Positions 15,805 to 61,204 of a DNA stretch of 64,000 nucleotides are shown here, piece after piece. Position numbers and translations under genes: made by a program. How positions within the stretch are numbered: the first letter of the stretch is position 1; every line of letters begins with the position of its first letter. The notes beneath the pieces are model-generated. The model did no database searches, had not been told where the DNA came from, and saw only the letters and a program-made list of their open reading frames with translations. Source of the DNA: Chiloscyllium plagiosum (Eukaryota); NCBI RefSeq assembly GCF_004010195.1, contig NC_057718.1:70790580-70854579 (forward strand). Reading direction: 5' to 3'.

Positions 15805-18200
15805 ATGTATAAAGGGACTGCAGTTGGAATTTTGGTTAAGGAATTTCCAGTAGTAAAACACGATTTCTAAAAGCTTTCTGAAAAATGGGAAAGAAGAACT
15901 AAGGATTTATTAACTAAGTGGCCGAAAGAGGGTGCTTTTGATATAAATAGGTGCGGTGAAGTGGAAGGGTTGTTTAAGGATTACAGACCTAAGGATAAAT
16001 CAAAAAAGAGAATATTGAAGAGGGAATAGGAGTTAAAAATTTTAAGGCTGTTTGGAATTGTAGAGGAGGATTGAGAAAACTTTTCACGGGGTTGCCAGAG
16101 AGCAGAACAAGCAGCTTTTGGAAACAAAGACTTTGGAAGAGAAAATCTCCACGTGCTCGGTACAGTACAAAAAGCCCTCCAGTATGGGGGTCCAGCAGGG
16201 GTCTACATCTATATATCTCAGGTTGGAAGACTTTTTTGGGGCAATTGGCCCCCCCACACCCACCCCATTTAGATGAAGAGAATGTAACACACTGTCCTGT
16301 AATAAGGGAGACAATAGAGATAGAGGGGGAATTAGATTTGGATGAAACTTACCCAGAACAGAATGTGTTAAAAATAAAACAAGAGGCAGGACAGGTGAGG
16401 TGGCAAACAGAATTAGAACCTTTACAACTAGAAAAAGAGAGATTGCAAGGTGAAATTCAGACATTATGCCTGTTAAGAGAACAGAGAGACTGTGAGGCAC
16501 ATCTAAGTTATTCCAGGAATGTTGTGCAGAGATAGGGAGAGAGTGATGGGGGTGGGGAGCAGAGGAGGCAGTAACACGGGCAAGGAGGTATGAGGAAATA
16601 CAAGTTGATGAAGGAGTGACGCTCTGAAAGCTAGTGTGCTTCCAATTAAACTTGTTGGACTATAATGTGTGATTTTCAAGTTAGGTTAGAATTGGTATCT
16701 GATGAGGAATTACAATGTAGCAATTTTATTAAGGGAAAGAAGCTCCCACAGGGGGTGATGCTGCCATTGTTTATAAAAGGAGGGAGACAGCCACAATACG
16801 TTCCTTGGGGAACCCAGGATCTGGAAAGGCTGAGAAATGTGTTGCCCAGTTTACATGATGGGAAAGTGGATTAGAGCCTTTGAAGATGAAACCACAGACA
16901 GTTGTTGGCTGTGGGAGACTTGAAGGCACTGCTAATACAGATGGTGGGACTCCCAAAATTAAGAGACTGAGCTCAACTGAAGAGTGTTGCGGACAATCTG
17001 ATGCTTGATGGTACTGGGTTTGATCGAGTAAGACAAAGGGTATGGCAGGCCCTTAGATTGTAACCTGCCTAAGGTTGATCCCAAAGCCTTGAGAGGGGAT
17101 TCTCTGGGAGATACTGAAAACCCAGCAGCCTATTTGGAAAACCAGTTTAAAAGGTGGAGGCTTGAAACAAAGCAAGTTGTGGAATGTAGTCAACTGTTAA
17201 CTGCAATTTTCTGGACTGCTACTGTCGAGGCAATGCCCCTCAAGTCAAATCTAAGCCAGAGGAGGTAGTGGGTCTAACGTCCGTGGCCCGCCAGGAATTC
17301 AGAGGTCACGTAGTCCATTCAGTCGTAAAATACCAGAAAACAAAAAGAAGCTGGCTGAACAGCAGGAGGAGGTGGCAAAGACAGTTGACATAAATGCAGC
17401 TAGGGGAACTTAAAAAGTCAGAGAGAGTGAAATCCGAGCTGCTGTTACCAGAAACTACAGGGTTGATTGGCACTAATGAAATGAAATGCAAGGCATGTTG
17501 GTCCAGGAAGAACCCTCTCCCGTCACCTGGCAAGGGCCAGACAACCCCATGCTGAGGGCGGCACGGTGGCTCAATGGTTAACACTGTTGCCTCACAGCGT
17601 CAGGGGCCAGGGTTCAATTCCAACCTTGGGCAACTGTGTGGAGTTTGCATATTCTCCCTGGGTGCTCCGGTTTCCTCCCACAGTCCAAAGATGTGCAGGT
17701 TAGGTGAATTGGTCACACTAAATTGCCCATAGTGTTCAGGGATGTGTAGGCTAGGGGTAAATATAGAGAAAGGGAATAGGTCTGGGTGGGTTACTCTTCG
17801 GAGGGTTGGAGTGGACCTGTTGGGCCGAAGGGCCTGTTTCCACACTGTAGGGAATCTAATCTAATCCAATCTAATCTCAGAGCTGTTTATGGAGGAACTT
17901 TACCGCAGATACCATGCCAAGGGCAATATATAATTAACTAACAGCCTAGACAAAACTGGGGTCTCCAAGGACAGGGACAAAGAGATGGGGGCTACAGGGT
18001 AGGGTGAGAAGTCAGATTCAGAGAGATCAGGAGAAGTGTTTGGGGGTGTAATCGACGAGGCCATTTGAAGAGAGATTGCCTATATTGGCCCCGGCCCTTC
18101 TGGCCCCAGGGAAAACCTATGAGTCAGGCATGTCTGGCTGTCCCGCCACAACTCCCTACTGGCCCGATGGGGCCTGCAAATCATATAGGGTGTGTCAGGG
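15805..18200 (+). pseudogene. gag: ERV gag (stops and frameshifts; interrupted by a PLE end and a SINE)
   Basis: Matrix-like KWPKEGAFD at ~15915-15941, capsid-like PQYVPWGTQDL...LPSLHDG at ~16790-16862, degenerate zinc knuckle GCNRRGHLKRDC at ~18044-18079. Confidence 0.85.
17555..17877 (+). mobile_element. HE1 V-SINE inside ERV gag
   Basis: Same head, V-domain and tail. Confidence 0.95.
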
Positions 18201-18580
18201 TTGCCCAGAGAACCGAAGTGGGAAGGGGCTATACCCTACGATGACATGGGAGGTTGAACAGAAACCTATTTTACAGGTTAGCGTAGAAGGTCGGTCGACG
18301 CCTATGAAGATAGATACTGGAGTTACATATGCTTGCGCCCAACCACAGTATGCCTCCCACCTTCCCATGCCCGGTAAATTTATTAAGACTGTAGAGTTCT
18401 CGCGTAGACCGTGGTTGACAAGGTTTACAGCTCCAGTAAGTTTACAAATAGATAGTAAAGTAGTCGTTTTGCCTTTATTAGTCTCTAAAGGGATACCAAT
18501 TAATTTGCTAGGTAGGGACGTTTTATTGAAGTTAGAATTAGAATTGGAATGTACTCAAAAGGGATTTAGTGTAGACAGAG
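18200..18580 (+). pseudogene. pro: ERV aspartic protease
   Basis: ORF 18076-18711 contains MKIDTGVTY (DTG at 18313) and PINLLGRDVL. Confidence 0.92.
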
Positions 18581-18800
18581 TGAATTCTCAGTTGGTGTTG
18601 CAGGGTGCCAGGGAGGCCAATGTATATTGGATAGGCAACATAGATGGTTATATTTGGGAAAAATGGAGGAAAGGTGCTTTAGTTTTACTGCCTTTGGCTG
18701 AGCCACCCTAATCTGAACTGCATTGTACAGTGATTTTTGATTAGACTCTGCGTGAAGTCTTAGGGAAGCGGTGGCACTGTGAGTTTGTCACCCCACAGCA
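18580..18800 (+). pseudogene. Probable N-terminal half of a 2H phosphoesterase (CNPase-like) domain in pol
   Basis: In frame after protease: ANVYWIGNID...PP*SELHCTVIFD. LHCT (18718-18729) matches the first HxT motif of CNPase-type 2H enzymes. The second motif is absent because of the deletion. Confidence 0.55.
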
Positions 18801-21959: not shown

Positions 21960-22684
21960 AATCACAGCATCCCTACAGTGTGGAAGCACGCCATTCAGCC
22001 CATTGGGTCCACAATTCTCACAAAGCATCCATCCCACCTAGATCCACCGCTATCCTATCCCTGTAACCCTGCATACTCCATGCCAAATCCACCTAATGTA
22101 TAATGTGGAGGTGCCGGTGTTGGACTGGGGTGGACAAAGTCAGAAGTGACATGCAGCGCTCCCAAATCTTATGATTTCAAATAAACCTGTTGGACTATAA
22201 CCAGGTGTCATGTGACTTATGGCTTTGTCCACCTAACCTGAAACCCTTTATTAGCATTTATCATGGCTAATCTACCTGGCCAGCACATCCCTGAACATAT
22301 TTAGCATGGCCAATCCACCTAACCTGCACATCTTTGAGAAGTTGGAGGAAACTCTCTCAGACACAGAGAGCATTGTGCTCAGTCATGTTTAGATTCCCTA
22401 CAGTGTGGAAACAGGCCCTTCGGCCCAAGAAGTCCACACCGACCCTCCGAAGAGTAACCCATCCAGACCCATTTCCCTCTGACTAACGCACCTAACACTT
22501 TGGACAATTTAGCACCTGACCTGCAAATCTTTGGAATGTGGGAGGAAACCGGAGCACCTAGAGAAACCCACGCAGACACGGGGAGAATGTGCAAAATCCA
22601 CACAGTTGCCCAAGGCTGGAATCAAACCTGGGACCCTGGCGCTGTGAGGCAGCAGTGCTAACCACTAAGCCACCGTGCTACCCA
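21960..22684 (-). mobile_element. Two HE1 V-SINEs, the older one carrying a family-2 PLE end at ~22100-22230
   Basis: Reverse-complement HE1 motifs; the more intact copy is 22385-22684. Confidence 0.88.
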
Positions 22685-24655: not shown

Positions 24656-26410
24656 AGTTCTAGCACAAACTCCCTTCTCTTAAATTATATGCCTCAGCTA
24701 ATGAAGGCAAATATCATGTATTTTATCCTATGCATGAACCACTTTATCTACCTGTCTCACTACCTTAAGGGTGGTGGAGGATAATCCTTCCTGCTGTTTA
24801 ACATAGTGTTCAATTCGGCATTGCACTTCAAAATGGCAACACTCCATCTAATTAGTGTTACATTCCAGTTTACATCATGATTTCACTACCTGTGATGGCA
24901 CTGGTGAACATTAAGTAGATATATGCAAAACCTTTTCCAAGATGTGGTTCAGAGCATTTCCAACCAGAAGTGGGCACACAGGATACTTCAAAGGTCTCAT
25001 AGGATTCAAAATCTGGGTGCTAAAAAGTCTTACTGTACCTCTCAAGGATTTTGAAGGAGAAGAAAGAGGGTGCAAGGAATTAAGAGAGGTGGTGTTCAAA
25101 GGTGGAGAAAGTACCAAATGAAGGCATTGGTGAGAAGCAACCGAGGAAGATTCTGGGAGAAGTCACTTCAGTCATGACTGTGAAGTGGATCATGGAAATA
25201 AGCTTAGCTGCTAAGGAATCAAGTTTGTACACTGAGTGTGTAGTACCTGAGGAAAGATACTTTTTTGTAGTTTTATCTGCTAGAAACAGAGAGTGGGATT
25301 GAGAGATGTGAATTTGGTGACTAGAGGGTGAGGTGGTGTGATCAGTTCCTGGATTGTTGGCTGTAGTTCATTTAGTTGATTTAGTTGATCAGATTCAAAA
25401 TGGCGGAGAACACGGCCCATGGAGTGCTCCTCATACAATGTGTGGGAAATCAGGGATACTTCCAGTGTCTAGGCTGACTATATATGCAATAAGTATGTTC
25501 AGCTGCAACTTCTGATTTGCCACATAGAGTGCCTGGAGCTGTGAATGGACTCAGTATGGTGCATCCACGAAGCTGAGTGTCATGGATAGCATGTTTAGCG
25601 AGCTGGACACACCAATAAGGAAATCAGGAGGGCGAAAAGGGGGCACGAGATAGCTTTGGATGAGAAGGTTAAGGTGAATCCAAAGAGATTTTTAAGTATA
25701 TTAAAGGGAAATGAACTAGAGAGAGAATAGGACCCCTCAAGGTCCAAAGTGGACATGTATGTGTGGAACCGCAGGAGATGGGTGAGGTCCTCAATGAATA
25801 TTTCTCTACTGTGTTTACCATGGAGAAAGCCATGAAGACTTAGTAACTTGGGGAAGTTAGTGGTGATATCTTAGGAACAGTGGTATTGGATATATTAGAA
25901 TGTATGAAGGTGGTTAAATCTCCTGGTCCGGAACACATATATCCAAGAACACTGGAAGAGGCTAGAGAAGACTCAATGAGGTCCTGAAACAGTGAAGGGT
26001 CGCGAATAAGGAGTTGAAGAAGGGCTGCAAAGAGAAACCTGGGATCTATAGACCAGTAAGCTTAACATCTGTAGTGTTAAGCTTACTTGAGAAGATTCTG
26101 AGGGATGAGATAAAAATGCATTTGTAAAGACAGGGTTTGATTTGGAGTAGTCAGCATGTGTGTGGGAGATCATGCCTCACAAATTTGTTCAAGTTCTTTG
26201 ATGAATATGTTTAGAGTGAGAGGGGAAAATTTAAAAGAGATCTAAGGGGCAACATTTTCAAGAAGAGAGTGGTGTGTGTATGGAATGAGCAGTTAAAGGA
26301 AGTGGTGGAGGCTGGTACAATTACACTATTTAAAAGGCATTTGGATAGGTATATGAGTAAGAAGGGTTTAAATGGATATGGGTGAAATGCTGGCAAGTGG
26401 GACTAGATTA

Positions 26411-26568
26411 AAAAGCACACAACACCAGGTTATAGTCCAACAGGTTTAGCTGGAAGCACTAGCTTTCAGAGCGTTGCTGAAAGCTAGTGCTTCCAATTAA
26501 ACCTGTTGGACTATAACCTGGTGTTGTGTGATTTTTAACTTTGCACACCCCAGTCCAACACCATATCA
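26411..26568. mobile_element. Fold-back terminus insertion of a second PLE-type family
   Basis: Arms cacacaacaccaggttatagtccaacagg / cctgttggactataacctggtgttgtgtg; TSD ggactagatta. Confidence 0.85.
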
Positions 26569-27392
26569 GGACTAGATTAGTTTAGGATATCTGGTCGGCA
26601 TGGATGAGTTGGACCAAAGGGTCTGTTTCCATGCTGTACATCTCTATGACTCAAAGTGACCAAGAAGGTTGTTGAGTGTAGGGCGGTAGACATAGTTTAT
26701 ACGGATTTCAGTAAGGTCTTTGATAAAGTTCCACATAGTAGCTTGCTCTGGAAGGTCAGAATCCAGGTGGACCTGGTAAATTGGATACACCATTGGCTTG
26801 ACGGTAGAAGCAGAGGGTAATAGTGGAAGGGTGCTTGTCGGACTGGAAGCCTGTGACCAGTGGTGCATCTCAGGAGTCGGCTCTGGGCCCATTGCTGTTT
26901 GTTTTCTATATCAATGATTTGGATGAGAGTGTACAAGACATGATTAGTAAGTTTGCAGATGACACTAAACTAGGTGGTATTGTGGTCAGTTAGGAAGATT
27001 ATCAGAAATTGCAATAGGACCTTGATCAACTGCGGAAGTGGGCCAAGAAATGGCAAATGGTGCTGAATATAGGTAAGTGAGAGGTATTGAGTTTTGGAAA
27101 GTCAAACCAAAGTAGGAGTTTCATGGTGAATGTAAGACCTTAAGGAATGTAGTGGAACAGAAGGACCTTGGGGTTTAGGTGCACAGTTCTCTGAAAGTGG
27201 AGTCACAGGTAGATAAGGCAGTGAAGAAGGCTTTTGGCACACTGGCCTTAACTTTTTATGCAACAGGAAATTGACCAGCTCCAATGGAATAGTGAACAGG
27301 ATTAAATGAAATAGGAGCAGAACTTGGTCATTCGGTCCTGAAATTTCTCCACAGAAGTCAGTATCCTGTTACCAAGCCACCCTTTATTTACA

Positions 27393-27655
27393 CATGGAAA
27401 GTCCTTGTCACTGATCCAGCTCCCTCAGAGTCAGCTCTCAGAGTGAACAGAACCTCTGACACTCCTATTTATTTTTTTTACCTCTTGTTTATTTTTATCT
27501 TTTCTGTTTTTTTTCTTTTTTTTCCATGGAAAGTCCTTGTCACTGATCCAGCTCCCTCAGAGTCAGCTCTCAGAGTGAACAGAACCTCTGACACTCCTAT
27601 TTTTTTTTTTACCTCTTGTTTATTTTTATCTTTTCTGTTTTTTTTCTTTTTTTTC
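27393..27655. repeat. Near-perfect tandem duplication, period 132 bp
   Basis: catggaaagtccttgtcactgatcc... starts at 27393 and again at 27525. Confidence 0.95.
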
Positions 27656-28309
27656 AACACTGCTGCCTAACTGTGGTAGTGCTTATTTTTCTCCAGCACC
27701 CATGTTGTGTGTGTGCAGGAGTGAGACACAGTGAAAGACACAAGGTGCACAAATCTTTATTCAATTTCCACCACCAGGAAGAAAAGAAACAACCAAATGG
27801 CCACACATTGGTCTTTATCAGTCAGAAAGTTATGGTCCATTTGTACAGGATGACGAGGCCGTAATTGGAGTGTTGTGTTCAGTTTCGGTCACCTTGCCAT
27901 AGGAAGGATGTTTTTAAACTGGAAAGAGTGCAGAAGACATTTACAAGAATATTGCCAGGACTCAAGGGTCTGAGTTAAAGAAATAGGTTGGACAAGCAAG
28001 GACTTTATTCTTTAGAATGGAATAGATGGAGGGGTTGATTTTATATAAGTATGTAAGATCATGAGAAGCATGAAGTGGGTGAATGCACTCAGTCTTTTTC
28101 CCAGGGTTAGAGAATCAAGGACTAGATGGCATCAGCCTAAGGTGAGGGGGAAAGAATAAAAGAAAACCGGACAGGCAACTTTGTTACACAGACAGTGGTA
28201 CACATATGCAATGAGCTGCAAGCGGAAGAGGGTGAGATGAGTACATTAACAACATTTAAAAGGCATTTCAACAAATACATGAATAGTAAAGGTTTAGAAG
28301 GATATGGGC

Positions 28310-28491
28310 TGAAAATGTGTTGCTGGAAAAGCGCAGCAGGTCAGGCAGCATCCAAGGAACTGGAGAATCGACGTTTCGGGCATAAGCCCTTCTTCAGGAA
28401 TGATTCTTGGATGCTGCCTGACCTGCTGCGCTTTTCCAGCAACATATTTTCAGCTCTGATCTCCAGCATCTGCAGCCCTCACTTTCTCCTC
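28310..28491. mobile_element. Fold-back PLE-terminus insertion
   Basis: TSD ttagaaggatatgggc (16 bp). Confidence 0.92.
28370..28397 (-). ncRNA. Minimal hammerhead ribozyme motif
   Basis: Minus strand: CTGAAGA-A-GGGC-TTAT-GCCC-GAAA-C-GTC. Confidence 0.72.
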
Positions 28492-29039
28492 TTAGAAGGA
28501 TATGGGCCAAGTCCAAAGAAATGGGTTAGACTCGATCAACATTTTGGTCGGCATGACTGATTTGGGCAGAAATGCCTATCTCTTTGCTGTGAACATAGGA
28601 GATATAGTTCGTAAATTTGCAGATGACACCAAAATTGGAGGTTTAGTGGACAGCGAGAAGGTTATCTTGGAGTACAATGGGATCTTGATCAGATGGGCCA
28701 ATGGGCTGAGGAGTGACAAATGGAGGATAATTTAGATAAAGGCAAGATGCTGCACTTTGGAAAAGCAAATCAGAGCAGGACTTATACACTTAATGATAAG
28801 GTCCTAGAGAGTGCTACTGAACAAACAGACCTTGGAGTGCACATTCATAGTTCCTTGGAAGTAGAATTGCAGGTAGATAGGATAGTGAAAAAGACATTTG
28901 GTATGCTTTGCTTTATTAGTCAGAGCATTGAGCATAGGATTTGGGAGGTCAATTCCGGTCTCCTTCCTATTGGTAGTATGTTGTGAAACTTGAAAGGGTT
29001 AAGAAAAAATTTACAAGGATGTTGCCAGGGTTGGAGGAG

Positions 29040-32055: not shown

Positions 32056-33076
32056 GCAAGAATCCAGCGTGGTATATTGTTACCATGGTGCCAAGATCAA
32101 AGATATCTGAGTAGCCCCAGGATATTTTGAGAAGGGAGGGTGAGAGGCCAGAGGCTGTGATCCATACTGATACTAATGATATCGGCAGAAAGAGATGAGG
32201 TCCTGCAAAGATAGTTCAAGGAATTAGGTAGAAAGTTAAAATGCAGGAGCTCTCAGATTCTAATCTCAGGATTACCTCTTGTGCCACATGCTAATGAGAC
32301 TCAGAATAGGAAGACAGCAAAGTTTAAATATGTGGCTAATTTGCTGGTTTAAGAGGGAGGGCTTCAGGTATGTAGATCATTGGGATGTCTTCTGGGACAC
32401 GTGGACTGTAAAAGCAGAATGGGTTGCACCGAAACAGTAAGATCTGTTCGTGAAACCTTGGAGGGTTTAAATTAGTATTTAGGGGTGGTGTGGGAGGATT
32501 GGAGGATTCTAGAGTATTAGGTCAGCAGGTAAAATGACCAAGGTGGAGTCAGAGACTGAGGCCAATAAAGGTAAGAGAAAGAACAGACAGGAATAGGTTA
32601 CTGAACATGGCAGGGCTGGCAATCTTAAGTGTATTTGTTTTAATGCAAGGAAAATGCCAGGTAAGGCTGATGAACTTCGAACTTGGATTAATATATACAA
32701 CTATGATGTTGTAGGTATTACAGAACTTGATTGAGAGAGGGACAAGATTGGAAGCATAACATTCCAGAGTTTAGATGTTTCAGTCGGGATAGAAAGGGAT
32801 ATAAAAGATGTGGGATAGTTGCATTACCAATAAGGGAGAATATCACAGCAATCCAAGCAAGAACACCTTGGAGGGTTCATCCAGAGAAGTCTTATAGATA
32901 GAGGTCAGGAACAGGAAGGTTGCAAGCACTTTGATGGAATGATATTATAGGCTTCCGAACAGCCAGCCAGAGATAGAAGAATAGATATGTGAACAGACTA
33001 TGGAAAAATCTGAAAATAAGGGGCTTGATGTGGTGGGTGATTTTAACTTGCCCTCTGTTGACTGGAACTCACTTAG

Positions 33077-33255
33077 GGGAGAAAGTGAGGACTGCAGATG
33101 CTGGAGATCAGAGCTGAAAATGTGGTGCTGGAAAAGCACAGCAGGTCAGGCAGCATCCAAGGAACAGGAGAAGGGCTTATGCCCAAAACGTCGATTCTCC
33201 TGTTCCTTGGATGCTGCCTGACCTGCTGCGCTTTTCCAGCAACACATTTTAAGCT
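33077..33255. mobile_element. Fold-back PLE-terminus insertion
   Basis: TSD ctggaactcacttag (33062-33076 and 33256-33270). Confidence 0.92.
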
Positions 33256-35531
33256 CTGGAACTCACTTAGTGCCAGGGGCTTGGATTAGGGGGAGCTTAT
33301 TAGGTTTTGAAATATGTAAATAGTCCAACTAGGGAAGAGGCTGAATTAGACCTGGTATTGGTGAATGAGTCTGGCCAGGTGATCAAGTTTCAGTAGGGGA
33401 GTATTTTGGAAGCAGTGACCCTAATTCTGTAATTTTCAAGTTACTTATGGAAGGAGAACAGTAGACCTCGGGTGAAAGTATTAAATTGGGGAAGGCTAAC
33501 TACCACAATATGAGACAGGAACTAGGGAATGTAGATTGGGAGCAGCTGTTTAAGGGTAAATCCAAATCTGTCATGTGGGAATCTTTTAAATGATAGTTGA
33601 TTCGGGTTCAGGACCAGCATGTCCCTGTGAAAACGAAAGACAAAGATTCAGGAACTTTGGACAAGAGAAATTGAGAGTGTAGTCAAAAAGAAAAAGGAGG
33701 CATACATAAGATTTAGAAAAATTAAGACAGAAACAGCCCTCAAAGAATATAAAGATGGCAGGAGAGAACTTAAACAATGAATTAGGAGGGCTCAAAGGGG
33801 TCATAAAATGTCTTTGGCAAAGATTAAGGAAATACACTCTCGGGAGCAAGAATGTAGATAGTTAAAGGGTACATCACTCAAGACAAAGGAGGGAATTTGT
33901 ATGTGGCACTGGAGCAAGGTCCTTAATGAATACTTTGCATCAGTATTCACAAAAGAGAACTGGTGAATGGTGAGTCGTGGAAGCCTTATATTGATATTCT
34001 AGGGCTTGTCAATATTAAAAAGCTGGTGGTGTAGAGTGTTTTAAGGTAGACAGTCTCCAGGACCTGATAGGATTTATCCCAGAATGTTGTGTGAGGCAGG
34101 TGAGGAAATTACCTGTGCCTTGTATAAAATCTTTATTTCCTCTTTAGATATAGGGGTGGACTGTACCTGGCCAGAAATAGAATGGCCCATGTTTGTTAAC
34201 ACAAAATGACTGATAAGTGGAAAGCAGAATTAAACAGCAGAATTTAAAACTAAATGGTGGACAAAGCAAAACAGTCTGCTCACACACACAGTAAAACATA
34301 AGATACCATAGAACAAACCATTCCAAGGATAATAAAAAGGATCCAGCCTGTTCCCATTCGAAACAGTTCTGACAAGACTACCTAAGGTCCAATAAATGAT
34401 TAACTCCAGCCACACTAAATGAAAAGGTAATTCTCCCAGTAAATGAACAAACACCAGTTGGCAGATAATAGACAATAGGTGCAGGAGTAGCCATTCTGCC
34501 CTTCGAGCCTGCACCACCATTCAATATGATCATGGCTGATCATCCTTGATCAGTATCCTGTTCCTGCCTTATCTCCATAACCCTTGATTCCACTGAGAGC
34601 TCTATCCAACTTTTTCTTAAATAAATGCAGAGACTGGGGCAGAGCATTCCACAAAGCCACCACTCTCTGGCTGAAGAAGTTTCTCCTCATCTCTGTCCTA
34701 AATGGTCTACCCCATATTTTTAAGCTGTGTCCTCTGGTTTGGCACTCACCCATCAGCAGAAACATGATTCCTGCCTCCAGACTATTCAATTCTTTAATAA
34801 TCTTATATGTCTCAATCAGATTCCCTCTCAGATCTGACCAGGGCCCTGTACAGCCCTGTACGGCCCTGTACAGCTGCAGAAGAACCTCTTTGCTTCTAAT
34901 GATATGGCCCATTATCTCCCTAAAACGGCTGAAGATGCAACAGCTCAAGTTATCTTATTGTACTTAGTTTCTTGAAATAACTCAGATTATTAAGACATAG
35001 CTTCTAATAAATAGTCAGCATCATGAGGGTAGTTTTCAGCATAAAAAATTGATATATATAACTAAAGCATAAAGGAAAAAAGCATTTAAACCTAGAAGTG
35101 AAGATTAGTTAGCATTAGGAAAAGACTTCTCTTTTACCCAGAACAAAATAGATTGCTCACAGCCCATTAATCAAAACCTTGACACTAGAAGTACTGTATT
35201 ATTTTAACATCATGAGACATAGGAGCAGAAATTAAGGCATTCAGCCCATCAAGTCTGCACCCCATTCAATCATGGCTAGTAACCCCACTCAACCCCACTC
35301 GCCCACTCTCTCCCCGTATTCCTTGATACTCAAGAGCCTACCTACCTACTATTTGACACTTTATAACTAATGTTAGAACAAATCAATATTACAAATCTTT
35401 CAAGTATGTTAAAACTGTCTTTTGTATTTTTACACATATAATTAGGACAGTGGAAAATGAGGAGTAACTGAATTTGATAAAATAGAATACAATGAATAAC
35501 AGAATTTAAGCTGCCCTTAGAGATAAGTCAG

Positions 35532-35771
35532 GTCGGTAAAAACAATGACTGCAGATGCTGGATACCAGATTCTGGAGTAGAGTGGTGCTGGAAAAGCACA
35601 GCAGTTCAGGCAGCATCCGAGAAGCAGGAAAATCAAAGTTCGGGCAAACCCCTTCATCAGGAATACCCAACGTATTCCTGACGAAGGGCTTTTGCCCGAA
35701 ACGTCGATTTTCCTGCACCTCGGATGCTGCCTGAACTGCTGTGCTTTTCCAGCACCACTCTACTCCAGAAT
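35532..35771. mobile_element. Fold-back PLE-terminus insertion
   Basis: About 105-bp inverted arms; TSD cttagagataagtcag (16 bp). Confidence 0.93.
35678..35705 (+). ncRNA. Minimal hammerhead ribozyme motif
   Basis: CTGACGA-A-GGGC-TTTT-GCCC-GAAA-C-GTC. Confidence 0.72.
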
Positions 35772-36453
35772 CTTAGAGATAAGTCAGCCTGAGACAGACC
35801 CAAAAGAGTACTTTGGAATGTGCATTTCAAGATCCCAAGCCTTGCGATTATAGTAGGTAAAACAGGGTAAAACACTGTTAAACACTGTGAGATCATGGGA
35901 ACCTGGGGCTGTCCATCGGAATGCTCATTGTTAATTAGGTGTCTCACAGGATTGCATGTACGAAGTAAGAGGAAGGAACATAGTGATCACGTTGTATGTG
36001 ATTGTTAACAGAAAATGTATAATAAATGCAACATTTTATTGTAAAATTAGAGTGTATCATGGATCTTCTTTCCGAGGCCAGTTTCAGGGGAATATCCTGT
36101 GTCCCTCTCCCTATATTGACCAGGTTATGCTCGAATACTCATTTTCCACTTGCCTGAATCCTGCTAGTCTCCTGAGATTTCATCCTCAGTTATGATCCTA
36201 CAGCAGAGATCCTAAGGACTGGAGAATACCCAATGTTTAAAGGGCAGCTGGGATAATCTGGGAAGTTACTGACTAGTGTACCTTATGACAGTGGTAGGAA
36301 AATTTTTAGAGAATAGGGTTACAAATAGGATTTATTCACAGTTCTAAAAATATAGACTTATTAGCAATAGGCAGCATGCATTTGTATGGGGAAGGTCATG
36401 TTTCACAAACATGATTGAGTGTTTTTATTGATGAGGCTGGGATGGTAGATGCT

Positions 36454-36765
36454 TAGATTAGATTATATTACAGTGTGGAAACAGGCCCTTCGGCCCAACA
36501 AGTTCACACCGCCCCGCCGAAGCGCAACCCATCCATACCCCTACATTTACCCCTTACCTAACACCAAGGGCAATTTAGCATGACCAATTCGCCTGACCTG
36601 CACATCTTTGGACTGTGGGAGGAAACCGGAGCACCCAGAGGAAACCCACGCAGACACGGGGAGAACGTGCAAACTCCACACAGTCAGTCGCCTGAGGCGG
36701 GAATTGAACCCGGGTCTCCGGCGCTGTGAGGCAGCAGTGCTAACCACTGTGCCACCGTGCCGCCC
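36454..36765 (-). mobile_element. HE1 V-SINE, young
   Basis: Near-identical to the reverse complement of 10821-11135. Confidence 0.95.
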
Positions 36766-39791: not shown

Positions 39792-41747
39792 TGTTTCAGC
39801 ATGACCTGAGACTACTCCATGAGTTACCTGGTTATAACATGGCTCTTCTTGTCAGGGAGCTGTCCTGACCTGGTAAAGTGCAAAAGGTATTCTCAAGCCC
39901 TGGATACAGTGAGTACTCCTTGTCACGGAGCAGCCAGCCTCTAGTTTGACTTGACATTGCATATGAAATTTTTTTAAAGTTTAGTTTCTGAAGCCCCAAA
40001 CCAAATGTGATAATGATCATATAATAGTTTTTTGGTCAATTTGGGTGAGCAATAAATATATGTCCCATCATTTCATTTGTTGAAAGGGTTGGAATAGAGA
40101 TTGTTCATCTTTTAAGGTATATCTGTGCAATCTGCTGTTGTATGTTAATAGAAACTAGTTTATTCCTTACCTATACATATTATAAGTCCATGCAAAATCT
40201 CTGAAGTCATCACAGAAAGTGATGTTACACTCACTCTTCTGGAGTTCCACCTTTTATCTGTCACACCTTTTAAATACTACAGCATTGATTAGATTAGATT
40301 ACTTACAGTGTGCAAACAGGCCCTTCAGCCCAATAAGTCCACACTGACCCTCCGAAGAGCAACCCATCCAGACCCTACATTCCCCTACATTTACCCCTTC
40401 ACCTAACACTATGGGCAATTTAGCATGACCAATACACCTAACCTACACATTTTTGGACTGTGGGAGGAAACCGGAGCATCCGGAGGAAACCCACGCAGAC
40501 ACAGGGAGAACAGACAGTTGCCTGAGGCAGGAATTGAACCCAGGTATCTGGCGCTGTGAGGCAGCAGTGCTAACCACTGTGCCACCGTGCCGTCCCCGAT
40601 TAATATTATCAACAAAAATAATTCACAAATCAATAGCTTTAAGTTCTGTAACAACATTCTCCAACAGGTAGATCAACTACTATATCTGGCATTTCAATTT
40701 AATAGGTTTAGAACACAATTGGAGATTGTTTATTTGTTTGTTTGATTTTGAGTCAGAAGCAGTCAGGATAGACCCCAGCAGAACTAAAAAAGATAAAAAT
40801 AAACAAGTGGGTCCAGAAGATCCAGGAGAACATCCAGAGAAATGCATAAACTATATAGTTTCAGCAAACTTTCGCATGGCTGCAGAAGGCTGTAAAGAGT
40901 TCAGTGGTTTTGAAGGGGGTAAAGAAAATTCATCTGGGATAAGGTAGTCTGAGAGAAAACCTTTTTTTAGAAAGGCTAAAAAAAATAAAAAAATTTATTA
41001 ATAAAAAAATTAAGAGAGGTCAAGGAAGGACATGTAGATTTCAAAAGAGAGAATGGGCAAGAGCCAGAAATGGAATAAGCCAAAACCTTCCTTGCTGAAT
41101 TGGATTGGAACCAGGGCAATTCCCTCCCATGCAGATTAACTGATTGTGAGAGAGAGGACCCCAACGCAGCCACAGGACAAAACAATAGAAAGTAGCCAGC
41201 TTCATGTGAACCAGGGTGTCCCACAGGTCTTGGGACAGAATCGGGACTGGTCCATTCCTGCTGTTGCTGAATTAGGGCAATATAGTGAAATTGTTACCTC
41301 GTAAACAAGATGACACTGACAACTACACAAAAGGCAGTGTGTGCTGCTGATAACTCTCAGGCATCCAAAACTAGTACTAAGTTGATACTTAGCCAGAAGT
41401 GTTAGAAATAGTAGAGGCTGAAAGAGAGGCAGCCAACATGTGGCTAGCAAAATCCTCTCTCCCAGGGATAAATAAGGGCACTGAAACCTCCCAGACCAAA
41501 ATTGAAAGTGTACAACTACCAAAATTATCAAAGAAACTATTATCTGGTCTTTATCACATTTCTGTTTTGGGACCTCAGAAACTAAACTTTAGAAGAATTT
41601 CACAAGCAATGTCAAGTCAAACTAAAGGGTGACAAGGAGTACTCGCTATACTTCAGGCTTGAGAATACCTTTTGCACTTAACTCCAACAAGAAGAGACAT
41701 GTTGCAACCAGATAAATCATGGGGTAAACTAATGGCATCCTGAAACA
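39792..41747. repeat. Segment bounded by ~230-255-bp inverted repeats, TGT...ACA
   Basis: 39792-40046 aligns to the reverse complement of 41518-41747. Confidence 0.8.
40290..40597 (-). mobile_element. HE1 V-SINE
   Basis: Same motifs, with an internal deletion. Confidence 0.93.
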
Positions 41748-43999: not shown

Positions 44000-46290
44000 T
44001 CTGGATTAGTGGTACTGGAAGAGCACAGCAGTTCAGCTAGCATCTGAGGAGCAGTAAAATCAACGTTTCGGGCAAAAGCCCTTCACCAGGAATACAGGCA
44101 GAGTGCCTGAAGAGTGGAGAGATAAATGAGAGGAGGTTGGCGGTGGGGAGAAAGTAGCAAAGAGTACAATAGGTGAGTGGGGGAGGGGATGAAGGTGATA
44201 GGTCAGGGAGGAGGGTGGAGTGGATAGCTGGAAAAGAAGGTAGGCAGGTAGGACAAGTTATGGGGACAGTGCTGAGCTGGAAGTTTAGAACTGGGGTGAG
44301 GTGGGGGAAGGGGAAATAAGGAAATTGTTGAAGTCCACATTGATGCCCTGGGGCTGAAGTGTTCCGTGGCAGAAGATGAGGCGTTCTTCCTCCAGGCGTC
44401 TGGTGGTGAGGGACCTGCAGTGAAGGAGGCCCAGGACCTCCATGTCCTCGGCAGAGTGGAAGAGGGAGTTGAAATGTTGGGCCACAGGGCAGTGTGGTTG
44501 ATTGGTGTGGATGTCCCAGAGATGTTCCCTAAAGTGCTCTGTTAGGAGTCGTCCAGTCTCCCCAATGTAGAGGAGATCGCATCGGGAGCAACGGATACAA
44601 TAAATGATATCGGTGGATGTGCAGGTAAAACCTTGATGGATGTGGAAGGCTCTTTTAGGGCCTTGGATGGAGGTGAGGGAGGAAGTGTGGGCACAGGTTT
44701 TGCAATTCCTGCGGTGGCAGGGGAAGGTGCCAGGATGGGAGTGTGGGTTGTAGAGGGGCGTGGGTTGTAGAGGGACCTGACCAGGTAGTCATGGAGGGAA
44801 TGGACTTCGCGGAAAGCAGAAAGGGGTGGGGAGGGAAACATATCCCTGGTGGTGGGGTCCGTTTGGAGGTGGCGGAAATGTCGGCAGATGATTTGGTTTA
44901 TGCGAAGGTTGGTAGGGTGGAAGGTGAGCACCAGGGGCGTTCTGTCCATGTTACGGTTGGAGGGATGGGGTCTGAGGGCGGAGGTGCGGGATGTGGACGA
45001 GATGCGATGGAGGGCATCGTTAACCACGTGGGAAGGAAAATTGAGGTCTCTAAAGGAGGAGGCCATCTGGTGTGTTCTGTGGTGGAACTGATCCTCCTGG
45101 GAACAAATACGGTAGAGGCGGAGGAATTGGGAATACAGGATGGCATTTTTGCAGGAGGTAGGATGGGAAGAGGGGTAATCCAGGTACCTGTGGGAGTCGG
45201 TGGGTTTGTAAAAAATGTCGGTGTCAAGTTGGTCGTCATTAATGGAGATGGAGGGGTCCAGGAAGGGGAGGGAGGTGTCAGAAATGGTCCAGGTAAATTT
45301 AAGGTCAGGGTGGGATGTGTTGGTGAAGTTGATGAATTGCTCAACCTCCTCGCGGGAGCACGAGGTGGCGCCAATGCAGTCACCAATGTAGCGGAGGAAG
45401 AGGTGGGGAATGGTCCTGGTGTAATTAAGGAAGATCGACTGTTTTTACCAAGACCATCTTCAGGGTCAACTCTGGTGCTAATTGTCAACTTATGGTCTCC
45501 AACCTTTTAAGCCTGCTGTAACATTGTCTTAGGAAAAACAAATTCAATCTGACCCTTTCAATTCTACATTGCAATCTGTTGGGTGGAGGGTGTGGGTGGT
45601 GTCTCGAATGTATGTGGGGAGTTCCTGGACTAGGGGGGATAGGACAGTGTCGAGGTAGATAGAAATGAGTTCAATGGGGCAGGAGCATGCTGAGACAATG
45701 GGTCGGACGGGGTGGTCAGGCTTGTGGGTCTTGGGAAGGAGGTAGAACCGAGCAGTGCAGGGTTCCCGGACTATGAGTTGGAAGCTGTGGATGGGAGATC
45801 TCCTGAGGTGATGAGGTTCTGTATGGTCTGGGAGACTCACCTTCATCCCCTCCACCCACGCATCAATGAATTTAATACACACCGTGACGTCGAACACTTC
45901 TTCCACCGTCTCCGCCTCTGAGCTTACATTCACAATCAGGACTCCCGCCCACCTTCCAAGGACCCCTTCGCCCACCTCTAACACACTGCATCCACCTGGA
46001 TACCCCGCGCTGGCCTATTACCAGCCCTCGACCTCTTTATTTCCAACTGCCGCCGGGACATTAACCGCCTCAATCTGTCTACCCCCCGCCCCCACTCCAA
46101 CCTCTCACCTTCACAACCTGCAGCCCTCCAATCCCTCTGCTCCAATCCCGACCTCACCATCAAGCCAGCAGATAAAGTAGTGGTAGTCTGGCGCACTGAC
46201 CTTTACATTTCTGAAGCCAGATGCCAACTCGAGGACACTTCTTCCTACCGTCCCCTCAACCATGACCCCACGCCCCCATCACCAAACCAT
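44000..46290 (-). mobile_element. Penelope-like element (Neptune type): RT, Cys linker, GIY-YIG and terminus, with an inverted 5' piece at ~45835-46290
   Basis: Minus strand: FYLLPKTHK..RPIVS, LFLRYIGDC (mutated YIDD), LPFLD, FPCHRRNCKTC, IIYCIRC..LLYIGETGR. Confidence 0.95.
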
Positions 46291-46859: not shown

Positions 46860-48550
46860 TTTAGGATAGGATCTATTTCTATTTAGAAGAAAATGGGCTT
46901 ATCAGTAATGGCAGCATGGTTTTGTGCAGGGAAGGTCATGTCTTACAACCTTAATAGAATCCTTTGAGGAGGTGACAAACTTGATTGATGGGGGAAAGGT
47001 CGTAGATGTTATAAACATGGACTTCAGTAAGGCGTTTGATAAGGTTTCACATGGTAGGGTGATAGAGAAGGTGAAGTCGCATGGGGTCCAGGACATTCTA
47101 GCTAGATGGGTAGAGAACTGGCTGGGCAACAGGAGACAGAGACTAGTAGTAGAAGGGAGTTTCTCAAAATGGATACCTGTGACTACTGGTGTCCCATAAG
47201 GATCCGTGCTGGGACCACTGTTGTTTGTGAATATATATTAATGATGTGGAGAAAGGTATCGGTTGCCTGATTAGCAAGTTTGCAGATGACACCAAGATTA
47301 GTGGAGTAGTAGTTAGTGAAGGGGACTGTCGGAGAATACAGTAGAATACAAATAGGTTGGAGAGATGGGCAGATAAATGGTAGGTGGAGTACAATCCAGG
47401 CAAATGTGAGGTGATGCATTTTGGAAGATCCAATTCAAGAGCGAACTATACAATAAGTGGAAAAGTCCGGGGGAAATTGACATACAGAGAGATCTGGGCG
47501 TTCAGGTCCATTGTTCCCTGTGGGTGGCAACACAGGCCAGTAAAGTGGTCAATAAGGCATACAGCATGCTTTCCTTCATTGGACAGGGTACTGAGTACAA
47601 GAGTTGGCAGATCATGTTACAATTGCATAATACTTTGGTTCAGCCACATTTGGAATACAGCAATCAGTTCTGGTCGCCACATTACCAAAAGGATGTGGCT
47701 GCTTTGGAGATGGTGCAGAGGAGGTTCACCAGGATGTTGCCTGTTATGGAGGGCGCTAGCTATAAAGAGAGGTTGAATAGATTAAGATTATTTTCATTAG
47801 AACAACAGAGGTTGAGGGTGCCCTGATTGAGGTCTACAAAATCATGAGAGGTAAAGACAGGGTGGATAGCAAGAAGCTTTCTCCCCAGAGTGCGGAATTC
47901 AATTACTAGGGGTCACAAATTCAAAGTGAGAGGGGAAAAGTTTAGGGGAGATATGCATAGAATGTCCTTTACACAGAGGGTGGTAGGGGCCTGGAACGCA
48001 TTGCCAGAGGAGGAGGTAGAGGTGGGAATGATAGCGTCATTTAAGATGTATCTAGATAAGATACATGAATGGGCAGGGAGCAAAGGGATACAGATAGAGT
48101 CATAGAGATGTACAGCATGGAAACAGACCCTTCGGTCCAACCTGTCCATGCCGACCAGATATCCTAACCCAATCTAGTCTCACCTGCCAGCACCCGGCCC
48201 ATATCCCTACAAGCCTCTCCCTGTAGCTCAGATCCTCCAACCCTGGCAACATCCTTGTAAATCTTTTCTGAACCCTTTCAAGTTTCACAACATCTTTCCG
48301 ATAGGAAGGAGACCAGAATTGCACACAATATTCCAACAGTGGCCTAACCAATGTCCTGTACAGCTGCAACATGACCTTCCAACTCCTGTACTCAATACTC
48401 TGACCAATAAAGGAAAGCATACCAAACGCCTTTAGATCTTTAGAAAATAGGCGACAATTTTATATAGAGGATCTGGATCGGTGCAGGCTTGGAGGGCCGA
48501 AGGGACTGTTCTTGTGCTGTAGTTTTCCTGGTTCTATTTATTCTTTGACC
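46860..48550 (+). mobile_element. CR1 3' half with a nested opposite-strand CR1 end (48095-48432)
   Basis: GRSCLTTLIESFEEV, DFSKAFDKV, KFADDTK; same subfamily as 22765-24520. Confidence 0.93.
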
Positions 48551-51500
48551 TCACTGTGTCCTCTTGCCAGCTTATTTTCAACTTATTACATCTTTGTTAA
48601 CAAATTTGACAACCATACCTTATATTCTTTGAGTCATTTGCACAAACTGTATTAAGTTGAGGCAGCAGCACTGATTCCCATAGTCCACCACTCATTGCAC
48701 CTTGTCAACATGAAAAAGGCCCAATAACATATTTTCTGTTTCCTGTTAGCCAGGTAATTGTCAATCCATGCAAATATGCTACACCGTTCACCATGAGCTT
48801 TTATTTTCCACAATAACCTTTAATGTGGTACCTTAACACTCGCCTTCTGGAAATCCAAGTACTGGTTCCCCTTTATCTTCAGCACTTTATCTTATACAGT
48901 CAGAGTTGTGGAGGTTTAAAGCATGGAGGCAAGCCCTTTGGCTCAACTTGTCCATGCCACCCAGTTTTTCACAATTAATCTAGTCCCATTGCTGCGTTTG
49001 GTCCATATCCCTCCATACCTATACCATCCATGTACCTACCCAAACGTTTCTTAAAGGGCAAAACTGTACTCGTTTCCACCAATACTTCAGGCAGCCCATC
49101 CCAGACACCACCCTCTGTGAAAAAAATTGCTCCTCAGGACTCTGTTGTATCTCACCCCTCTCACCTTAAACCTATGCCCCCTAGTTCTGGACTCCCCTAT
49201 CATGGGGAAATGCTTTCACTGTATACCTTATCTATACCTCTCGTGACTTTATAGACTTCAAGTCTCCTACACTGCAGGGAAAAAAAAATGTCCCAGCCTA
49301 TTCAGCCTCTCCTTATAACTCAAACCTTACAGCCTAGGTGGGAACCTAGTAAATCCTTTCTGCACGCTTCCTGGTTTAATAACTTCCTGTATAGTAGGGT
49401 GACCAAAACTGCACCCAGTAGTCCAAGGAACTCCACCTATCTCCTCCAAGAACTCCAATAGATTAGATTGGAGTTCCCTTTAACACAACAATGCTGACTC
49501 TGCCTGATTATCTTGAATTTAGCTCCATGCCCTGCTCTAACTTCTTTTATAACCAGGTTCTAACATTTCTATTTGACAGAGGTTAAGCTAGTTGACCTGC
49601 AGATTCTGACATTCTGTCTCTTGTCCTTTTTGAATAAATTCACAACTTTTGAATCTAATAGGAATGTTCTCAAATCCAAGAAAACAGGTTTGGAAATTTA
49701 AAGCCAACACATCAACTATCTGATGAGGCACTTCTTTTAAGACCCTAGGAGAAAGTTCATCAGAAGACAGGTACTTGTCAGCACAAACAACCCCAGCAAT
49801 TTATTCAGTATCAGTTTTCTGATTAGTGTGACTTTTAATGAGTTCCTTCCTCCCTCCCTTCCATTTTCTGGATGTTACTTCTTTATAGTAAATACTGATG
49901 CAAAATACATTTTCAATTCAACTTCTATTGCTTTATTTTCCATTACTAATTCTCCAGTCTGACTTTCTATAAGGAGAAAGTGAGGACCGCAGGTGCTGGT
50001 GCTCAGAGTTGGGAGTGTAGTGCTGGAAAAGCACAGCAGGTCAGGCAGATGGCAAAGAGGCAAAACAAAAATGGGAAGTGGCAGGTCTTGGCAGCATCTG
50101 TGGAAAGTGAAATGGAGTTAATATCTCAAAGCCAGTGACCTTTTATCAAAATGGTCAGTTCTGACAAAGGGACATGTCCCAACAGCCATAATCTGGCCTA
50201 GGGCCAAAGGGGGGATCTGTAAGTTCAGCCCATGAATGAAAGACACAAGTGGATGCCAAGGTTTAGATAGACTGAGACAGCATGCTCCAGCATTAAAACA
50301 CAAAATAGTCGACGAGAGATAAACAGGATAAATAGTGGAACATAATGGTACCTTTGAACAGGACCACTCCAAGTCCAGCAAGGTGCATTGCGAGCAATCA
50401 TCTAAGACAGTTTTATAAGAAGATGCTTAATGACAGACAAATGATTGATTCCAGACTCATTTATAAGAGGATGTTATCTCAATAACTGACCAGCAACAGT
50501 GAGAACAAAGGGTGTAAATCTCAGCCCATGAACCAGCCAACCTAACTCATCAAGTAGGTGTGAAAACAACAGCAAAAGGTATTTTATAGTAATTGGTAGT
50601 TTCTTTGAAGTTATTCACAATATTAGGATATAGATTCTTCATAGTTTCATAGCTTTATAGTAATAGAAGCAGAGTAGGCCAATTGGCCCATCAAATCTAC
50701 TCTGTAATTCATTAAGATCTCAGCTCATCCTTCTTGCATTATCCCCATCACCCTTAATACCCCAACCATGCAAAAACCCATCAAATTGTGTCTTGAATAC
50801 ATTTCATGAAGCTGCCACTATTGCATCCTTGGGCACAGAATTCCATAGATTCACTAGTCTCTGTGAAAAGCAGTTTAACATAGAACATCGAACAGTACAG
50901 GCACTTTGGCCCTTGATGCTGTGCTGACCTTTCATCCTGCTCAAACTAATGTACATACCCTTCAATTTACTATCATCCATGTGCCTATCCAAGAGTCACT
51001 TATGTGTTCCTAACATATCTGACTCCACTACCACTGCTGGCAGAGTATTCCACGCACCCACCACTCTGTGTAAAGAATTAACCTCTGACATCTCCCCTGA
51101 ACCTACCTCCAATCACATTAAAATTCTGCCCCTTTGGGATAGCCATTTCTGCTCTGGGCAAAAAAAGTATCTTGACGATTGACTCTCATGATCTTATACA
51201 CCTCTATCAAGTCACCTCTCAATCTTCTTTGCTCCAATGAGAAACCTTACTTCATAAGACATGCCCTCCAGTCAACGCAACATACCAGTAAATCTCCTCT
51301 GCACCCTCTCTAAAGCTTTCACATACTTCCTACAATGAGGCAACCAGAACTGAACACAATATTCCAAGTGTGGTCTAACCAGGACTCTGTAGAGCTGCAG
51401 CATAACTTCACGGCTCTTAAACTCAATCCTCCCCCCGCTAATAAAAGTCAACACATCATATGTCTTCTTAACAACCATATCAACATGGGTGGCAACTTTG

Positions 51501-52925
51501 AGGGATCTATGGACATAGGCCCTGTTCCTCCACACTGCCAAGAATCCTGCCTTTAACCCTGTAAACTGCTTTCAAATTTGACCTTCCAAAATGGAACACT
51601 TCACACTTTTCCAGGTTGAACTCCATCTGCCACTTCTAACCCCAGCTCTGCATCCTGTAAATGTCTCATTGCAATCTACAACAGCCCTCCACACTATCCA
51701 CAAATCCACTGACCTTCATGCCATCAGCAAACTTACTAACCCACCCTTTCACCTCCACATCTAAGTCATTTATAAAAATCACAGAGGTCCCATATCAGAT
51801 CCCTGCGGAACACTAGTGGTCATCGAGCTCCAGGCTGAATACTTTCCATCTACTACCTACGGGCCAGCCAATTCTATATTCAGACAGTCAAATTTCCCTG
51901 TATCCCATGCCTCTTTACTTCCTGAATGAGCCAGGCATGGGGAACCTTAGCAAAAGCCAAAGTAAGATCCATACACACCACATCCACTGCTCTACCTTCA
52001 TCAATGTGCTTTTTCACATCCTCAAAGAATTCAATAAGGCTTGTGAGGTATAATCTGCCCTTCATAAAGCCATGCTGACTATCTCTAATCAAGCTATGCT
52101 TTTCCAAATAATCATAAATCCTATCTCTCAGAATCCTCTACAATAATTTGCTCACCACTAACATAAGACTGATTGGTCTGTAATTTCCAGGGTTATCCCT
52201 ATTCCCTTTCTTGAACAAGGGAATAACTCTTGCCAGCCTCCAATCAGCTGGCATGACTCTAGTGGACAGTGAAGATGTAAAGATCATTGCCAAAGATGCA
52301 GCAGTCTCTTCCCTCACTTCCCATAATTACCTTGGGTATTTCCTGTCTGGCCCAGGGGATGTATCTATACGTATATTTTTCAAAATTTCCAGCACATCCT
52401 CCTCCTTAATATCAACCTATACGAGCATATCTACCTGTTTCATGCTGTCCTCACAAATGGCAAAGTCCCTCTCATTAGTGAATACTGAAGTTAAGTATTC
52501 ATTTGGGACCTCCCTCATCTCCTCTGACTCTAGGCACAAGTTCCACCTACCATCCCTGATCAGTGCCGCCCTCCCCCCAAACACCCCCACCTCCCACCAC
52601 TACCCCACACTGGCCATTCTCTGGCCACCTAAGTATAGAACGCTTTGGGGTTTTCCTTAATCCTAGCTGCTAAACCTTTATCACCTCCCTTAAAGCTCTT
52701 CTAAGTCCATTCTTCAGTTCCTTCCTGGCTACCTTGTAACCTTCTAAAGCCCTGTCTGATCCTTGCTTCCTCAACCTTAAGTAAGCTCCCTTCTTCCTCT
52801 TGATTAGGTGTTCCACATCTCTTGTCATCCAAGGTTCCTTCACTCTACCACCCCTTTATTATCTCAGCTGGATAAACCTATCCAGCGCTCACAGCAAGTG
52901 CTTCCTAAACAAGCTGCACATTTCT
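48550..52925 (-). mobile_element. Stack of minus-strand CR1 fragments (largest 50875-52925)
   Basis: ORFs 51272-51541 and 51880-52107 encode CR1 RT segments. Confidence 0.85.
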
Positions 52926-52930
52926 AACTT

Positions 52931-53450
52931 TATAACAGAAATTCACATCTTATAGCAGCTAGTTAAAACCAATTGTCTTTTGTGTTTATTGGGACAATGG
53001 AGAATACATGAAAAACAGAATTTAAGCAGTTCTTAGAGATAAGGAAATCTGGGACAGACCACCAGGAATATAACCAGTAAGTTTGGAATGAGATCATAGG
53101 AACCTGGGACTGTCCATAGGAATGTCCATCATTGATTAGGTGTCTCACAGGATTGGGTGTATGGAATAAGAGGGAAGGACATAGTGACCACACTGTATGT
53201 GATTATTGTAACACAATGTATATAAAAATGCTGTATTTCATTGTAAAAATCAGAGTGTGTCATCGAACCCTCTTCCAATCTGAGCCAAAATTTAAGGGAA
53301 TAATTGTGCTCTCACATCAAGGCCAGATTCAGGGAAGATCCTTTGGCCCTCTCCCTGCATTAACCAGTTATTGCTTGAATAAAAGTCTGCCACTTACATC
53401 CTGCTTCCCTCCTAAGTCTTCATCACCATTCATAAGGGATTCAGGATCCA
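52931..53450 (+). repeat. Solo-LTR-like repeat
   Basis: TATATAAAAA at ~53219, AATAAA at 53378; homologous to 35371-36202. Confidence 0.65.
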
Positions 53451-55925: not shown

Positions 55926-56099
55926 ACGGTGTAGGTGTGGAGTATCCTTTGATAACCTTCCTCACTATCCACAATTCCACCAATTTTTGTGTCATCTGCA
56001 AATGCACTAATCAATTTGCAAGCTTACTAATCTGTAATCAGGGATGGAGCAATTTTTAGCAATGAAGAGGGAGTGGAAAAGCTCAGGTTGTTTTCTACA

Positions 56100-61165: not shown

Positions 61166-61204
61166 AATATAAAAGTAATGTAGTCTTGCAATGCTATTAG
61201 TGAG

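Follow-up and report, generated by a model that had tools for sequence, protein, structure and literature searches.

Head-to-head Penelope-like element termini in Chiloscyllium plagiosum: hairpin stubs left by integration, probably through twin priming

Introduction

In the insertion unit described for Penelope-like elements (PLEs), an inverted, 5′-truncated copy lies beside the 5′ end, and a tail of 30 to 40 bp is found at one end (PMC8557442, PMC3846280). In rotifers, PLEs with palindromes at the inverted junction, target-site duplications (TSDs) of 8 to 10 bp, and solo pLTRs have been reported (PMC3846280), and the origin of the inverted-plus-tail structure has been called undefined (PMC8557442). 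In vitro, the Poseidon protein of a lizard element nicks and extends both strands, and two start sites bound the tail; the hammerhead of this element cleaves only in the presence of the protein and is dispensable for insertion in vitro (PMC11167929). Among the minimal hammerhead ribozymes (min-HHR) of metazoan PLEs, the example tested showed no cleavage as a monomer and little as a dimer or trimer (PMC4209133).

We analysed a stretch of 64,000 nucleotides from Chiloscyllium plagiosum (contig NC_057718.1, positions 70,790,580 to 70,854,579), hereafter the window. An initial annotation had presented a palindromic insertion at 35532-35771 as the type of a group of fold-back mini-insertions that may be ribozyme cassettes, sources of dsRNA or small RNAs, or retrozyme-like RNAs. 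We find that both of its arms correspond to the 3′ end of the sense strand of a coding PLE, placed head to head inside one TSD, that one arm is tailed and the other tail-less, and that the turn point varies from copy to copy. In our reading, to which we assign a probability of about 0.7, the insert is a single, dead-on-arrival integration event of an endonuclease-bearing PLE that took place by twin priming.

The focal insert

The 240-bp insertion and its exact 16-bp TSD (35516-35531 repeated at 35772-35787) are as annotated, and so are the two inverted PLE termini. The loop, which had been put at about 7 nt, measures 5 nt (35667-35671), and the arms are unequal, the minus arm (35532-35666, tail included) being 35-37 nt longer at the tail that the plus arm lacks. 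The end of this tail would be the outer reverse-transcription start site, and the centre is private to this insertion, or nearly so. The two arms differ from each other at 8 of 101 aligned columns, all 8 (35620-35720) falling within the 47 loop-proximal columns and none in the distal 54 (p = 0.002), a clustering that could be explained by fold-back copying, by later homogenisation of the arms, or by the survival of palindromes whose centre was disrupted. The predicted RNA fold of the insert reaches −177.3 kcal/mol (z = −21.9 against 200 shuffles).

An assembly fold-back artefact is ruled out by the TSD and by independent contigs. Four sequencing runs (three DNA, one RNA) were aligned to 35300-36000 at 88% likeness, and in one DNA run (X1) a contig bridges 35611-35699 across the loop with no other letters and one gap, having 56 and 28 letters on either side, the shorter of which lies slightly below the 31-letter bridging rule of the tool. 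The right junction is covered (35737-35988) by a contig from a second organism (X12, organism B), which departs from the window at 10 of 253 letters; the focal insertion is thus older than the split of organisms A and B. Exact 13-mers repeated 100 to 320 nt apart occur at five places in the window; since four of these surround palindromes (28294, 33062, 35516, and 61192), the TSDs of the palindromes are beyond chance, and the fifth place is a local duplication. The sole non-PLE exact 16-mer repeat at short range is a local direct duplication of about 130 bp at 27393-27650. No empty target site was found among the 15 joints listed of 469 in the DNA runs. The palindromes within 26281-26652, 28207-28560, and 56020-56990 sit in older, high-copy LINE-like repeats (families D11, D16, D18), and these host repeats could serve as reference empty sites.

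Table 1. Features of the focal insert, its relatives, and the parent element in the window.
Feature	Coordinates	Strand	Remarks
Left TSD, 16 bp	35516-35531	+	Exact match to 35772-35787
PLE tail, 35-37 nt, minus-strand arm only	35532-35566	-	Alignment; tail as defined in PMC3846280, PMC8557442, and PMC11167929
Minus-strand arm, 5′-truncated PLE terminus with degenerate hammerhead	35567-35666	-	Alignment
Centre between arms, 5 nt	35667-35671	.	Unlike the element's upstream sequence at 13513 or 44000
Plus-strand arm, 5′-truncated PLE terminus without tail	35672-35771	+	Alignment; end shares 2 nt with the TSD
Minimal type I hammerhead motif	35674-35709	+	Core from 35678; features as described in PMC4209133
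Right TSD, 16 bp	35772-35787	+	Exact repeat
Sister palindrome, 16-bp TSD	28294-28507	.	Intact core on the minus arm, which lacks a tail; plus arm tailed, starting about 40 nt downstream of C3
Sister palindrome, 15-bp TSD, without intact core	33062-33270	.	Arms differ at two sites; one arm there equals the 28310 copies
Sister palindrome, 13-bp TSD, without intact core	61192-61376	.
Palindrome of second Penelope-type terminus family, 11-bp TSD	26400-26579	.	Both arms start inside stem II
Old decayed palindrome, first family	7381-7575	.	No TSD found
Long-armed version	56099-56963	.	Arms of about 205 nt (tailed) and about 600 nt (tail-less, into endonuclease region); 9 bp of TSD recognisable
Decayed coding PLE ending in the focal terminus without tail	44000-46290	-	Broken RT-side and GIY-YIG frames

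Parent element and related copies

The terminus that ends the decayed coding element at 44000-46290 also ends, in the same sense, the fragments 12900-13610 and 56371-56963. The last frame of the coding element is GIY-YIG nuclease-like (Atlas 0.96; Pfam E = 0.037, under the cut-off) and the frame preceding it is HTH_animal-like (Atlas 0.94), both Atlas searches being feature-based leads without alignments. Pfam searches of seven PLE frame fragments gave one weak GIY-YIG match and six blanks, and the core motifs of the reverse transcriptase (RT) were not recovered from the broken frames (0 families). It is through this terminus that the parent is placed among the EN+ PLEs, which combine an RT with a C-terminal GIY-YIG domain; a placement in the Poseidon clade would go by domain order. 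The upstream part of the coding element (45841-46290) is inverted and adjoins the rest without overlap, as would result from a 5′ inversion of the L1 type or from an inversion at a later time, and about 100 bp of unrelated sequence interrupts the element near 45450-45560.

The focal insert has the marks of an EN+ PLE insertion, namely an inverted, 5′-truncated, head-to-head copy, a tail at one end, and a TSD. As far as the published Penelope and Poseidon units are described (PMC3846280, PMC8557442), the likeness extends to heavy 5′ truncation, palindromic junctions, and a GIY-YIG parent. The stubs differ from these units in that both partners are cut to 40-135 nt, with no coding part left, and in their far higher density; their TSDs, at 11-16 bp, are also longer than the 8-10 bp reported from rotifers (PMC3846280).

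That inverted, TSD-flanked copies are frequent and the family very abundant was borne out: the terminus family takes up about 3.3% of the non-N bases of the window, and its arms recruit 48,062-61,529 contigs per DNA run in three runs (54,745 in one). A long-arm search found 17 family arms in the window, 10 of them in five short palindromes, 2 in the long-armed version, and 5 single. A second terminus family accounts for the palindromes at 26411 and 22112 and for a single copy at 16606. In total, the 62.8 kb of called bases contain seven short palindromes. The sister palindromes annotated at 28310, 33077, 61205, and 26411 (the entries from 28294, 33062, 61192, and 26400 in Table 1) do have TSDs, of 16, 15, 13, and 11 bp, respectively, the correction being that 26411 carries a different Penelope terminus; the older palindrome at 7381 is indeed a decayed member of the first family. 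A further head-to-head pair of the second family lies at 22112-22240, with a tailed arm of about 50 nt, a tail-less arm that starts in stem II, and no clear TSD.

A one-sided tail of 33-39 nt is present in all six TSD-bearing palindromes, the other arm stopping short of it. The 5′ starts relative to position C3 of the hammerhead differ from palindrome to palindrome, being −6/−6 (focal), about −6/+40 (28310), +30/+5 (33077), and +4/+52 (61205) when set by eye; a script gave −5/−5 for the focal copy and −4/+44 for 28310. Single arms start at +1, +5, and +49, and four arms extend hundreds of bases further, so that arm length forms a continuum from 40 nt to more than 1 kb. Tailed arms lie on the minus strand in 8 of 10 cases (5490, 22112, 33077, 35532, 49973, 56099, 59066, and 61205, against 26476 and 28404 on the plus strand), which could be due to chance or to a preferred orientation within a host intron. 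The window also holds a repeat of about 300 bp, SINE-like by appearance, at 22389-22683, 36459-36765, and 40294-40595 (D15, D17, D19), and a region at 16000-18711, probably what is left of an LTR retroelement or endogenous retrovirus, a frame of which (18052-18711) matches a retroviral aspartyl protease (Pfam RVP, E = 5e-5).

The hammerhead motif

The reading of the arms as PLE termini with a minimal type I hammerhead motif is supported, as is that of an intact core on the plus arm and a degenerate one on the minus arm. The intact core runs from C3 (35678) to C17 (35705), with a predicted cut after 35705, and it has the CUGANGA/GAAA/UH letters, an extra base after A9 (the A at 35685), the G10.1-C11.1 pair, and a palindromic 15.2-16.2 segment, ACGU, in place of stem III. 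The minus-arm copy has two 1-nt deletions and substitutions in stem II, GAAA, and the cut triplet. In the core, the extra nucleotide between 9 and 10.1, the G10.1-C11.1 pair, the palindromic segment, and also in the massive number of dispersed copies, the motif agrees with the metazoan min-HHR as characterised in PMC4209133. Compared with these, stem II has only 4 bp (35686-89/35694-97), the weak stem I (two pairs, a U-U, and one pair, so that 3 of 4 positions pair, where helix I of min-HHR has 4-5 bp) is broken by the U-U, and the motif is embedded in its own antisense copy.

This last property matters for folding. In the predicted fold of the full insert, whether or not 200-nt flanks are included, the pairing probability of stem II is below 1e-8 and that of stem I below 1e-21, stem II reaching about 1 and stem I at most 0.03 in the isolated arm, and freeing the core within the hairpin is predicted to cost about 35 kcal/mol. 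On these models, the hairpin sequesters the hammerhead core and abolishes the ribozyme fold in the full transcript. Cofolding prefers another duplex (−28.2 versus −18.9 kcal/mol, without stem I), which is weak evidence. Among 13 Rfam matches up to E = 5 there were no hammerhead families; weak matches to miRNA families appeared at four hairpins, all far below gathering scores, and a miRNA gene was rejected. A metagenome scan with a 30-nt degenerate pattern gave no matches.

A strict descriptor finds three intact cores in the 17 arms (13518, 35678, and 28397) and one chance-like match; two of the six palindromes originally listed have an intact core and four do not. Across copies, conservation of the core does not exceed that of the sequence downstream: among 15 of the 17 arms (those at 7381 being left out as too decayed), changes affect 12 of 108 core positions versus 39 of 575 downstream (p = 0.16), or 8 of 86 versus 28 of 520 without CpG (p = 0.21). 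There is thus no sign, in this comparison of copies, of selection on the hammerhead core. Between the two terminus families, the core letters are conserved and the stems differ (16606 copy), a pattern that fits selection in the parent elements. The hammerhead would be a passenger in the insert, relevant, if at all, in the RNA of the parent element.

Mobility and expression of the hairpins

If the hairpins were a mobile unit, their centres should recur. At loop base 35667, the summed depth is 199-379 versus about 1e6-1e7 on the arms, and 11-14 for flank contigs (X1); summed contig depth is not copy number, and it is the contrast between loop and arm, four orders of magnitude, that we rely on. 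All 15 listed joints (of 469, three DNA runs) connect the left arm to the right arm, all in different pairs, and being mutually different they represent other loci that turn elsewhere; the private changes of the query bias where joints can be called, and loose ends at 35673-4 were not counted as truncation points, the query having no upstream sequence. In the window, too, no two palindromes share a turn point. The hairpins do not form a family of mobile cassettes.

In the RNA run, 1,878 of 12,955,460 records (about 2% of one polyA single-cell run) match the family, in both orientations. Only 4 of the 1,878 are at least 99% alike, one read covers the loop, and 99% run on into unlike sequence; the focal flanks have zero depth on both sides in the same 2% of the run, which has little bearing on other tissues or non-polyA RNA. 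Taken together, the zero flank depth, the few reads at or above 99%, and the run-on indicate that transcripts from elsewhere in the genome include the terminus. Read starts and ends did not pile up, the predicted cut included, but this library type would not show such a pile-up in any case, and we give the result no weight. The 15 listed arm-to-arm joints have no support from RNA reads, and a search of sequencing runs listed no RNA run as carrying the focal sequence. RNA editing is not callable, because the A>G and T>C differences in the RNA reads listed also occur in family DNA contigs. Two variants, at 35563 and 35734, are present in about 47% and 35% of one-orientation RNA reads versus 0.3% and 3.5% of DNA contigs; this excess probably reflects one highly expressed host transcript with a copy, editing being possible at 35734.

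Could the hairpins nevertheless be transcribed and re-inserted as units, as non-autonomous, retrozyme-like RNAs? Their high density would suit such a life cycle, pLTR sequences are reported to suffice for mobilisation in trans (PMC3846280), and some joints have a summed depth of several hundred, so that a few centres may be multicopy. Against this stand the differing centres, the low loop depth, the lack of RNA reads over any of the 15 listed joints, and the lack of tandem hammerheads in a hairpin that would itself block the fold, and we regard the idea as very improbable. Non-LTR retrozymes, as far as they are defined in PMC6155905 and bioRxiv 10.64898/2026.07.22.740005, are also non-coding, derived from PLE termini, and equipped with a hammerhead motif, but a retrozyme consists of direct repeats in tandem and has a minimum of two complete hammerheads, whereas each stub is one inverted pair that has no more than one intact core and a centre of its own. 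Both this class and a retrozyme spreading as a unit with shared boundaries were rejected on these grounds, and the retrozyme-like RNAs of the initial annotation are not supported; nor are its ribozyme cassettes, given the sequestered core, the four palindromes of six without an intact one, and the unshared centres. A MITE or foldback DNA transposon was rejected as well, for the ends differ by the tail, the TSD (11-16 bp) is not fixed in length, and solo arms with their own TSD exist (59066). Retention by selection of ribozymes or of dsRNA or small-RNA cassettes useful to the host has equally little credit with us. The hairpins are very stable on both strands, fly siRNAs are known from inverted Penelope copies (PMC3681739), the focal insert is common to two organisms, and family reads occur in RNA in both orientations; the core decays like its neighbours or faster, however, the near-identical reads and flank depth are as scarce as given above, and the clustering of differences near the loop looks as if perfect palindromes were selected against. 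Inverted Penelope copies yield siRNAs in Drosophila, and a passive role of the hairpins as a dsRNA or siRNA source is plausible, though not a new idea (PMC3681739). Transcribed by chance, they would form duplexes of 30-55 bp as a passive by-product.

Origin of the inverted pair

In LINE-1 twin priming, both target ends prime cDNA, which results in a 5′ inversion with microhomology at the join. There, the two arms are adjacent, non-overlapping parts of one RNA, whereas here both are the same terminus. For the PLE, we propose that the GIY-YIG nuclease would make staggered nicks 11-16 nt apart and that each target 3′ end would then prime reverse transcription on PLE RNA, one start lying at the outer site (the tail end) and the other at an inner site some 35 nt further upstream, with 1-3 nt of pairing as an aid. 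Synthesis of both cDNAs would end prematurely, within the hammerhead region or shortly beyond it; end-joining with a few shared or added bases would unite them, and gap filling would generate the TSD. If each 3′ end primes a single cDNA, the expected product is a pair of antisense extensions, head to head inside one TSD and only one of them tailed. The scheme resembles the behaviour of Poseidon of the lizard Anolis carolinensis (PAc) in vitro, in which two start sites bound the tail and both strands are nicked and extended. In most copies here the sequence continues past the hammerhead cut site, and unprocessed RNA is the main template in the PAc experiments concerned (PMC11167929). At the tail-less end, each of the six junctions has 1-3 nt in common with the target (13 nt altogether; p = 3e-5 to 3e-4 under a simple model, with boundaries set by hand, the 56099 TSD partly lost, and one window surveyed).

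The alternative to be weighed most carefully is fold-back or self-priming, in which the first cDNA, or an antisense RNA as proposed by Arkhipova et al., folds onto itself and serves as its own template, later deletion making the centres asymmetric. Self-priming was proposed for rotifer PLEs on the basis of palindromic junctions (PMC3846280), and the focal element is what one would expect from it, or from later homogenisation: it is symmetric, its two arms begin at one and the same base with 5 nt of loop between them and agree in all 54 distal columns, and they share a minority variant (35763/35577). The 61205 copy, in which the tailed arm is the longer one, also agrees with it. These observations count against twin priming, and asymmetry elsewhere could have come from later deletions at palindrome centres. 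However, in five of the seven tailed palindromes (28310, 33077, 26411, 22112, and 56099) it is the tail-less arm that extends further in the 5′ direction, and neither arm is therefore a plain copy of the other; with sequence private to each arm in these five, simple fold-back is insufficient without later deletion. Single tail-less copies (13610 and 44000) end at the same inner site, and the microhomology at the tail-less end is a further point against it. The arms of 33077 differ at two sites, one arm having the letters of the 28310 copies and its partner the common letters (one site is a CpG; n = 1), a hint from sequence that two RNA templates may have been used. On balance, we consider fold-back unlikely. 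Under twin priming and fold-back alike, the insert is an integration by-product.

As a tentative extension of twin priming, about which we are rather more doubtful than confident, a dimeric PLE protein might prime both strands, at times on two RNAs, and cDNAs started at the first pLTR junction of a transcript might run off the RNA 5′ end about 6 nt before the core. Arms that start at −6 are found in 35532 (both arms), 28310, and 7381. If true, this model would explain the tail, the head-to-head geometry, the solo stubs, and the need for tandem copies, and it would replace the self-priming proposal.

Implications

The architecture described here is already published, and the stubs are the ordinary footprint of a Penelope-type element. 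In the open-licence literature, we found no description of such stubs from cartilaginous fish and no twin-priming model for PLEs. Given that about 3% of the DNA in this window lies in stubs, a purely computational test of twin priming versus self-priming is feasible. For gene annotation, the hairpins are likely to give rise to false miRNA predictions, and copies within introns are likely to contribute passive dsRNA. Thus, although the ribozyme-cassette class does not hold up, the stubs are data, a fossil record of how PLEs build inverted structures.
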